Origin: a bacterium
Lineage (GTDB): Bacteria; Bacillota_I; Bacilli_A; RFN20; CAG-826
Direction of reading: 5' to 3'
Length of the DNA stretch: 64,000 nt
NCBI GenBank assembly: GCA_963622135.1
Contig: CAVFGR010000008.1
Span: 150,218 to 214,217, forward strand
The position numbers were made by a program, and so were the translations under genes. The notes beneath the pieces are model-generated. The model did no database searches. It saw nothing but the letters and a program-made list of their open reading frames with translations, and was not told where the DNA came from. Every line of letters starts with the position of its first letter. The first letter of the stretch is position 1. Shown here one piece after another: positions 37,454 through 38,038 of the stretch.

Positions 37454-38038
37454 CTATATTTTCTCCAAGTATCTAATCAGGGTTGATAGCGTGTTTGAAT
37501 GGTAATGCGGAGCAACTTCCTTTATGAAACCAAAATCCAGTTTCATAAATTCCTCTTTATCTATCCTCAAATCTTCAAAGAGTAACGCTTTTAAGTCTTT
37601 TATCGATCTAACCGGGTATTTCGAATATAGGGTGTCGCATAAGCATTTTTCTTTTGATGCCATTTTGTATCTAACACCGGCTTGGCTTTGAAAGAAGCCT
37701 ACGCCATAAGGAAACGCCTCGTCTGGGATGCTTCTATATTCAAAAACTAAGCCGCCGGCTTTATACACTTTGTTGTTTTTCTTTCCAAAACAAGCAGAAG
37801 TGATAACAGACACGTGCTCGGGGATAAGCCCATAGTAAGATAGTGCGTATTCAAACGAAATGTACGAAGGAAAATAGCAAACATTCGAAATAACTGGTGC
37901 ATCAGTCGCCAAATCGTCCGAATAAAGACCATTTTTTATCCTGATCAAATTTCCTTTTTTGGTCTCCAAACTAATTTTTTGGTTAATGTTCGAATATGCT
38001 TCGAATCTAGAACGAAGGGCTTGAGAATCGTATATCAT
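37454..38038 (-). CDS. abiEi: AbiEi-family type IV toxin-antitoxin antitoxin (no adjacent AbiEii)
   Basis: N-terminal wHTH with GNLIRIKNGLYS. The C-terminal domain shows SFEYALSYYGL and KCLCDTLYS, which parallel S. agalactiae AbiEi (SHETALFYHDL, KTLCDILRG); similar length (194 aa). Confidence 0.7.
   Translation of the reverse strand: MIYDSQALRSRFEAYSNINQKISLETKKGNLIRIKNGLYSDDLATDAPVISNVCYFPSYISFEYALSYYGLIPEHVSVITSACFGKKNNKVYKAGGLVFEYRSIPDEAFPYGVGFFQSQAGVRYKMASKEKCLCDTLYSKYPVRSIKDLKALLFEDLRIDKEEFMKLDFGFIKEVAPHYHSNTLSTLIRYLEKI

Follow-up and report, generated by a model that had tools for sequence, protein, structure and literature searches.

A gene of the AbiEi antitoxin family was analysed in a 64,000-nucleotide (nt) stretch of a bacterial genome (assembly GCA_963622135.1, contig CAVFGR010000008.1, positions 150,218 to 214,217 of the forward strand), which is called the window throughout. 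With a probability of roughly 0.78, we read this gene as a solitary abiEi, the antitoxin/repressor half of an AbiE module without the toxin gene, which is equipped with its own promoter/operator and sits as a ~708-bp accessory insertion between pdxK and a lipoprotein gene. An earlier note on this DNA, made from the letters alone, had described an orphan AbiEi without its AbiEii toxin, and its placement of the open reading frame (ORF) was borne out: the coding sequence is intact, starts with ATG and encodes 194 amino acids (aa) at 37454..38038 on the minus strand. The three motifs that it had pointed to, GNLIRIKNGLY, SFEYALSYYGL and KCLCDTLYS, were all recovered, and in a 32-sequence alignment of the window protein and 31 homologues they occupy columns that are invariant or nearly so (41 positions are invariant, 43 near-invariant).

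Profile, predicted-fold and gene-neighbourhood evidence agree in upholding AbiEi over another winged helix-turn-helix family. The PADLOC model PDLC02230 AbiEi matched residues 4-193 of the 194 with an E-value (E) of 9e-59, and 13 further, weaker PADLOC AbiEi models matched as well. A Pfam scan of the protein gave no AbiEi match, and the NCBIfam model TAA_AbiEi scored 19 bits against a cutoff of 150; because a full-length PADLOC match coincides with these two outcomes, the subfamily lies outside the coverage of Pfam and NCBIfam, and the window protein is, to judge from its sequence, a member of an AbiEi subfamily unrecognised by curated libraries other than PADLOC. Searching the PDB sequences with the family profile returned chance-level matches only, and among 48,164 PDB chains the predicted fold was nearest to Rv2827c and to AbiEi of S. 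agalactiae, the two solved AbiEi antitoxins. Database homologues at 60-76% identity numbered 876, most of them from gut and rumen metagenome-assembled genomes labelled Anaeroplasmataceae, Acholeplasmatales, Erysipelotrichaceae or Bacilli. Of the 78 columns with a conservation of at least 90% in the paired members, 3 differ in the window protein, each time conservatively, and the paired members themselves deviate at 0-6.

The strongest evidence for the assignment is the genomic pairing of the homologues with AbiEii. Among 44 species-representative genome loci, an ORF of ~285 aa overlaps or abuts the abiEi stop codon in 31, and in 4 further loci the ~285-aa partner is cut by the contig end; with 35 of 42 informative species-level loci paired, the claim that AbiEi normally precedes AbiEii held. 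All six full-length partners scanned matched the Pfam AbiEii family PF08843 (E 2e-19 to 1e-26), and every paired homologue examined has abiEii on the strand of abiEi, either overlapping it or directly behind it. RefSeq plasmid relatives at 34-35% identity, labelled 'hypothetical protein', directly precede an annotated AbiEii/AbiGii toxin gene; relatives in the plasmid collection span 28-37% identity, and none were found in the phage collection. One point of the earlier note had to be corrected: AbiEii, which it called GNAT-like, is a DNA-polymerase-beta-family (DUF1814) nucleotidyltransferase (Dy et al. 2014, PMC3985639).

The toxin was searched for with a hidden Markov model built from 31 AbiEii partners of the homologues, run with filters off against a six-frame translation of the whole window. 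The best E was 0.42, neither a whole gene nor a fragment was recovered, and PF08843 was not found by Pfam scans of the flanking ORFs and of all AbiEii-sized ORFs in the window. The toxin-less state is thereby confirmed, with no intact or degraded AbiEii in the flanks or elsewhere in the window. Homology to paired loci still includes the abiEii Shine-Dalgarno sequence (TTGGAG) but goes no further; next comes TAG, the stop codon of abiEi. The locus does not form a bicistronic abiEi-abiEii operon; since the toxin is absent, it should not be filed as an AbiE system or called AbiE by defence-system finders, and since the window holds no toxin gene, the locus alone would not cause abortive infection or addiction and would not be expected to give phage resistance or to stabilise plasmids. 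Five window ORFs matched Pfam AAA_21 (PF13304), which is described as 'AAA domain, putative AbiEii toxin, Type IV TA system' (TA, toxin-antitoxin). They were rejected as candidates, all five being ABC-transporter ATPases and two of them OppD/F-like with oligo_HPY, and this naming could mislead an automated search into reporting the missing toxin falsely. A bulk PADLOC scan of 49 ORFs, which gave the 25 commonest of 126 families and is no proof that AbiEii is absent, included among the matches listed GajB (E 1e-97) and RTasHel (E 1e-104). These were also rejected as defence genes: the matches are most likely to a UvrD/PcrA-type helicase at 12250-14580, a housekeeping gene because it adjoins NAD-dependent DNA ligase and GatA/B.

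How the gene came to lie at this site was examined through close relatives of PdxK, which were collected by a protein-database search and whose contigs were compared with the window; loci designated by L and a number are those used for comparison here and below. A metagenome scan for PdxK was dropped for synteny purposes (80 loci, the best 62% identical, with no other neighbour shared). Locus L139 (GCA_963651955.1) is 96.1% identical to window positions 34000-37432, then carries 23 nt in place of 37433-38137, and its homology resumes at 38138, at the lipoprotein terminator. The same break points were found in L141 (GCA_963625165.1; PdxK 78% identical), which is syntenic on both sides and empty at the site. 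L140 and L142 (PdxK 79-80%) hold an unrelated ATPase_2 (PF01637)/DUF234 gene in place of abiEi (L140:6943-7779, L142:3704-4721), which marks the pdxK-lipoprotein gap as an insertion hotspot. In L005-L008, too, the solo AbiEi has ATPase_2 fragments directly upstream of it. No AbiEi or AbiEii signal was found in the compared contigs of L139, L141, L140 and L142.

The accessory segment holds the last three pdxK codons, the 11 nt that separate the pdxK stop from the abiEi stop, abiEi, the promoter/operator and a leader of ~45 nt. The last three PdxK residues were rewritten by the insertion, from NER in L139 to KGF in the window; the C-terminal tail of pdxK was dropped as a clue to the ancestral junction, being too variable among homologues. 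A short direct repeat marks the insertion boundaries, and a shared word of at least 7 nt between the junction windows arose in 1.5% of shuffles. By parsimony, the empty site would be ancestral, and abiEi with its promoter a ~708-bp insertion in a variable hotspot. Since the two form an accessory insertion, this genome may have lost the toxin at the site or may never have acquired it. The GC (guanine plus cytosine) content of abiEi, 0.378, is the lowest of the 49 window ORFs (median 0.448), which is consistent with a foreign origin. GC at third codon positions (GC3; 0.40 in abiEi, 0.17 in relatives, 0.53 in the host) had been considered as a sign of amelioration during long residence; this argument was dropped after the empty-site genomes were found, because the insertion is probably recent and the value would be accounted for just as well by a donor of intermediate GC.

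Within the species, the same lone abiEi was found in L137 (GCA_963606165.1), which is 98.4% identical over 8 kb, and in L053, L134 and L138, the gene being identical in L053 and different by 5 nt in L134. AbiEii was not found in the 12.8 kb of L137 either, and judging from these assemblies the orphan state is stable within the species. The comparison with related genomes suggested in the earlier note was thus carried out; it found the lone abiEi in conspecifics, but no related genome with an intact pair at the site. A 1-nt indel was seen at the 3′ end of abiEi (window 37454-37462 vs L137:6803-6815), where the protein ends in ...LEKI* in the window and in ...LEKYSF* in L137.

The upstream region carries a conserved regulatory block. 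In 27 loci whose proteins are 54-76% identical to the query, the upstream 55 nt showed 79% mean column identity, and the family block consists of a -35 box TTGATT, a 17-nt spacer, a -10 box TATAAT or TAAAAT, and the ribosome-binding site. A symmetry scan of these aligned regions found two nested inverted repeats lying over the -35 box, the -10 box and the ribosome-binding site, of which the outer one, of 13 nt (TGTTGATTTGCCA / TGGTGAATTAACA), covers the -35 box and the ribosome-binding site and is complementary at 13 of 13 positions in L024. At the window locus both outer arms, IR1 and IR2, were recovered by a consensus search; a consensus scan tool misses the -10 box because its position 2 is not A. 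Throughout the window, 41 operator-like sites with at most 3 mismatches were observed vs 25.6 expected, an excess that was treated as compositional, and no second convergent intergenic pair of half-sites was present, the other matches being single or inside coding regions. Because pdxK converges on abiEi and the lipoprotein gene ends in its own terminator-like hairpin, abiEi forms a separate transcription unit.

In the mechanism that we propose, abiEi would be transcribed from the TTGAAA/TTAAAT promoter, and the winged-helix domain of its product would bind the IR1 and IR2 arms and repress its own transcription, by analogy with AbiEi of S. agalactiae and Rv2827c of M. tuberculosis. This autorepression is the most likely activity. 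The C-terminal domain may still be able to bind and neutralise AbiEii-type nucleotidyltransferases, and the family-invariant residues are kept in the window AbiEi. A related AbiEii could in that case be neutralised in trans, either one arriving on a mobile element (anti-addiction) or one encoded elsewhere in the genome. Such latent neutralisation is plausible; for a locus that lacks the toxin, no activity beyond it and autorepression seems plausible. According to a 2026 preprint, AbiEi of S. agalactiae complexes with AbiEii and induces auto-phosphorylation of the toxin (bioRxiv 10.64898/2026.01.19.700257).

Table. Positions in the window of the insertion boundaries, the candidate regulatory elements of abiEi and other features
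Feature	Position	Strand	Basis or remark
Accessory segment	37433..38137	.	blastn of window 34000-42000 vs L139
Direct repeat ATTAAAA, left copy	37427..37433	+	insertion boundary
Direct repeat ATTAAAA, right copy	38135..38141	+	insertion boundary
3′ junction	37454..37475	-	alignment with paired (L010, L012) and solo (L009, L001, L005) loci
Outer inverted-repeat arm IR2 (TGGTAAATAGACA), putative operator half	38039..38051	-	overlaps ribosome-binding site
Shine-Dalgarno-like GGTGGT	38048..38053	-	9 nt before ATG; conserved as GGTGGTGA in 27 aligned upstream regions
Inner palindrome over -10 region	38057..38075	-	family consensus AATATTAT-N3-ATAATATT; 6/8 complementary here
-10 box TTAAAT, degenerate	38063..38068	-	family TATAAT/TAAAAT
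Outer inverted-repeat arm IR1 (TGTTGAAATACCA), putative operator half	38080..38092	-	overlaps -35 box; 9/13 complementary to IR2
-35 box TTGAAA	38085..38090	-	family TTGATT; inside IR1
pdxK, downstream neighbour	36645-37442	+	PdxK/Phos_pyr_kin-type kinase, convergent; Pfam PF08543, E 5e-21
Terminator-like hairpin of lipoprotein gene	38144-38163		
Lipoprotein gene, upstream neighbour	38186-39937	-	583 aa; signal peptide and lipobox cysteine (MKKKLIALALLAAATGALTVSCG)
AAA_21-matching ORFs	209-1072, 1063-1884, 42562-43914, 43914-45833, 58079-58873		ABC_tran top match

Orphaning of this kind recurs in the family. An intact toxin is missing in 7 of the 42 informative loci (~17%), and 4 of the 7 keep AbiEii remnants. 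Closest to the window protein (75-76% identity) are L009 and its near-twin L001, the latter taken from the protein database. In both, the abiEii start codon and ~8 codons are followed by an internal deletion and then by an 81-aa ORF that matches AbiEii positions 200-285, a C-terminal stretch of 86 aa. Elsewhere, L038 retains only the first 87 AbiEii residues, L041 and L025 carry short C-terminal traces, and L024, L048 and L013 have no AbiEii trace; L005, a protein-database solo locus outside the 42, has the 5′ end of abiEii with an early stop. Because the solo loci are scattered over the neighbour-joining tree, where the paired L010 separates the window lineage from L009/L001, toxin loss has been repeated and independent. 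The abiEi ORF is full-length in 9 of 9 solo homologues examined. Since L009 and L001 share the same deletion, they diverged after the toxin was lost, and their abiEi genes differ by 9 synonymous and 5 nonsynonymous changes, a ratio of nonsynonymous to synonymous rates (dN/dS) of 0.13 (binomial p 2.7e-4 vs neutrality). These numbers are small, and they point to purifying selection having continued on the orphan abiEi of this pair. The remnant ORF (L009:4458-4703 and L001:3741-3986) is itself still open, with 4 synonymous and 5 nonsynonymous differences (dN/dS 0.24, p 0.049 vs neutrality), so that it may not be entirely free of constraint, these numbers being very small. The dN/dS of the window gene against its relatives was dropped, synonymous sites being saturated. 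The reverse arrangement was seen at L045:592-2042, where the abiEi frame is interrupted (a 161-aa ORF, with tblastn similarity to residue 192) and the downstream 285-aa AbiEii ORF looks intact, which is either an assembly error or a toxin whose antitoxin is incomplete.

Both neighbours named in the earlier note were confirmed (Table). The window surroundings are core chromosome, with PcrA, LigA, GatA/B, a class II aminoacyl-tRNA synthetase, TsaD and an Opp transporter, and there is no signature of a tRNA-linked island, because Rfam and tRNA scans of the window gave no matches. At 26970-35197 and 38186-41816 lies a cluster of large proteins without a Pfam match (1194, 1207, 309, 583 and 568 aa), at least two of which have lipoprotein signal peptides. 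When L139 is compared with the window, identity is 96% in the pdxK flank and 72-78% in the lipoprotein flank. This suggests surface proteins that evolve fast, and it recalls the association of AbiE with vpma in mycoplasmas (PMC8562856).

The three options set out in the earlier note, a relic of a decayed module, an anti-addiction orphan and a regulator recruited for another role, proved to be the right set; a still-functional orphan is weakly favoured among them, and the recruited regulator went unsupported. Several observations weigh against a functional solitary antitoxin. The -10 box is degraded, lacking A at position 2; the promoter spacer, at 16 nt, lacks one of the 17 nt that the family and L137 have, because an A5 run (38074-38078) stands where L137 (7380-7440) has A6; and the inverted repeats fall below consensus (9/13 and 6/8), all of which could mean low expression or early decay. 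Within-species variation of the window gene (3 synonymous and 2 nonsynonymous changes) is too small to show selection, and a relative-rate test (16-22 unique changes vs 8-18 for L010, chi-square 0.1-5.5 by outgroup) hints that the window lineage is mildly faster. If the insertion is recent, as the empty sites of L139 and L141 suggest, intactness needs no selection. Finally, the absence of the toxin covers 64 kb of the genome, and a distant AbiEii is possible.

Some of these points would suit a neutral relic, that is, a recently stranded antitoxin without present function that is intact for lack of decay time, an account to be taken seriously if not a likely one. Acquisition looks recent from the empty sites (the left flank of L139 being 96% identical at the nucleotide level), the -10 box, spacer length and inverted repeats depart from the family consensus, and L137 departs from the window in its C-terminal end and its promoter A-run. 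The -10 box is also deviant more often in solo lineages (3 of 7) than in paired loci (1 of 19; Fisher p 0.047), which hints weakly at a relaxed promoter constraint after toxin loss. Against a relic stand the full-length ORFs of all nine solo homologues examined, the dN/dS of the L009/L001 pair after their shared toxin deletion, and the retention of essentially all conserved residues in the window protein.

A further-reaching form of the solitary functional antitoxin, which we put forward as rather doubtful, is that lone AbiEi proteins of this Pfam-invisible subfamily are a selected functional class and not debris, serving as self-repressing 'immunity' cassettes against the addiction or abortive killing that incoming abiE elements would bring in gut and rumen Acholeplasmatales/Anaeroplasma-like bacteria and spreading as single-gene insertions such as the ~708-bp one. 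It is hinted at because orphaning is independent in ~17% of species-level loci, purifying selection is seen in L009/L001, and the putative operator is retained. The recurrent orphaning in the family could serve as a data set for the anti-addiction idea.

It is improbable that the module is split or redundant, with a cognate or cross-reacting AbiEii elsewhere in the genome for which this AbiEi is the antitoxin or a back-up. The 64-kb reach of the toxin search leaves room for it, several AbiE copies as well as orphans are present in Mycoplasma mycoides strains (PMC8562856), and some DUF1814 genes are unlinked to antitoxin genes (PMC3985639); set against this are the tight same-strand linkage of abiEii to abiEi in every paired homologue examined and the lack of AbiEii in the window and in the 12.8 kb of conspecific L137. 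Recruitment as a regulator of neighbours such as the variable lipoproteins or pdxK is very unlikely. The gene does lie amid large, fast-diverging surface/lipoprotein genes, and AbiE pairs occur inside the vpma surface-protein locus of mycoplasmas (PMC8562856), but the only convergent intergenic operator-like pair in the window is abiEi's own, the lipoprotein gene is set off from abiEi by its own terminator, and the same neighbours occur without abiEi in related genomes. That the protein is another winged-helix protein, misassigned by motif resemblance, could be argued from the missing Pfam match, the NCBIfam score far below its cutoff, the empty PDB sequence search and the RefSeq label of the plasmid relatives, but is effectively refuted by the full-length PADLOC match, the consistent pairing of homologues with PF08843 toxins and the fold comparison.

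Chromosomal orphan antitoxins can act as anti-addiction modules, and the chromosomal ccd of Erwinia chrysanthemi is reportedly an example. The window AbiEi resembles them as a lone antitoxin able in principle to neutralise a related incoming toxin, and differs from them in that an incoming abiE element or cross-neutralisation is not evidenced for it.

Among the counterparts compared is AbiEi of S. agalactiae (SAG1284), the antitoxin of an AbiE system (Dy et al. 2014, PMC3985639) with structure 6Y8Q (Beck et al. 2020, PMC7319586), which is of nearly the same size as the window protein (195 aa vs 194 aa). Its operator is TGTTGCTTTTA-N27-TAAAAGCAACA, in which IR1 overlaps the -35 box, and the protein binds both arms and represses transcription (PMC3985639). 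The two promoters are alike in having two inverted half-sites that start with TGTTG, the first covering the -35 box and the second close to the ribosome-binding site, whereas abiEii is present in S. agalactiae and absent at the window locus, where binding and antitoxicity are putative. Rv2827c (PDB 1ZEL), the AbiEi-family antitoxin of M. tuberculosis, autoregulates through two sets of inverted repeats (PMC7319586), and the window family likewise has two nested sets; Rv2827c differs in its 295 aa, its pairing with the toxin Rv2826c and its 9% identity to the window protein. In Mycoplasma mycoides subsp. capri, the AbiEii/AbiEi pair is TA160/1 and orphan antitoxin copies occur in several strains (Hill et al. 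2021, PMC8562856), AbiE being associated there with variable surface-protein loci and horizontally transferred regions (PMC8562856). That system is likened to the window locus by description, not by sequence: both have a Mollicutes-type host, an AbiEi of similar length (~198 aa in M. mycoides) and orphan copies, whereas the window host is uncultured, appears to use the standard genetic code and probably belongs to the Acholeplasmatales, the name borne by the closest named pdxK relatives.

Orphan AbiEi beside complete AbiE pairs is thus already known from Mycoplasma mycoides, and orphan antitoxins are commonplace; the window locus is one more documented example of a known pattern, in which the toxin is lost first and the antitoxin persists. 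For annotation, its value is in exposing a subfamily that Pfam and NCBIfam miss and that is labelled 'hypothetical' in RefSeq plasmids. What it adds to the known systems is this subfamily invisible to Pfam and NCBIfam, a clean empty-site comparison, and recurrent toxin-first decay in the family.
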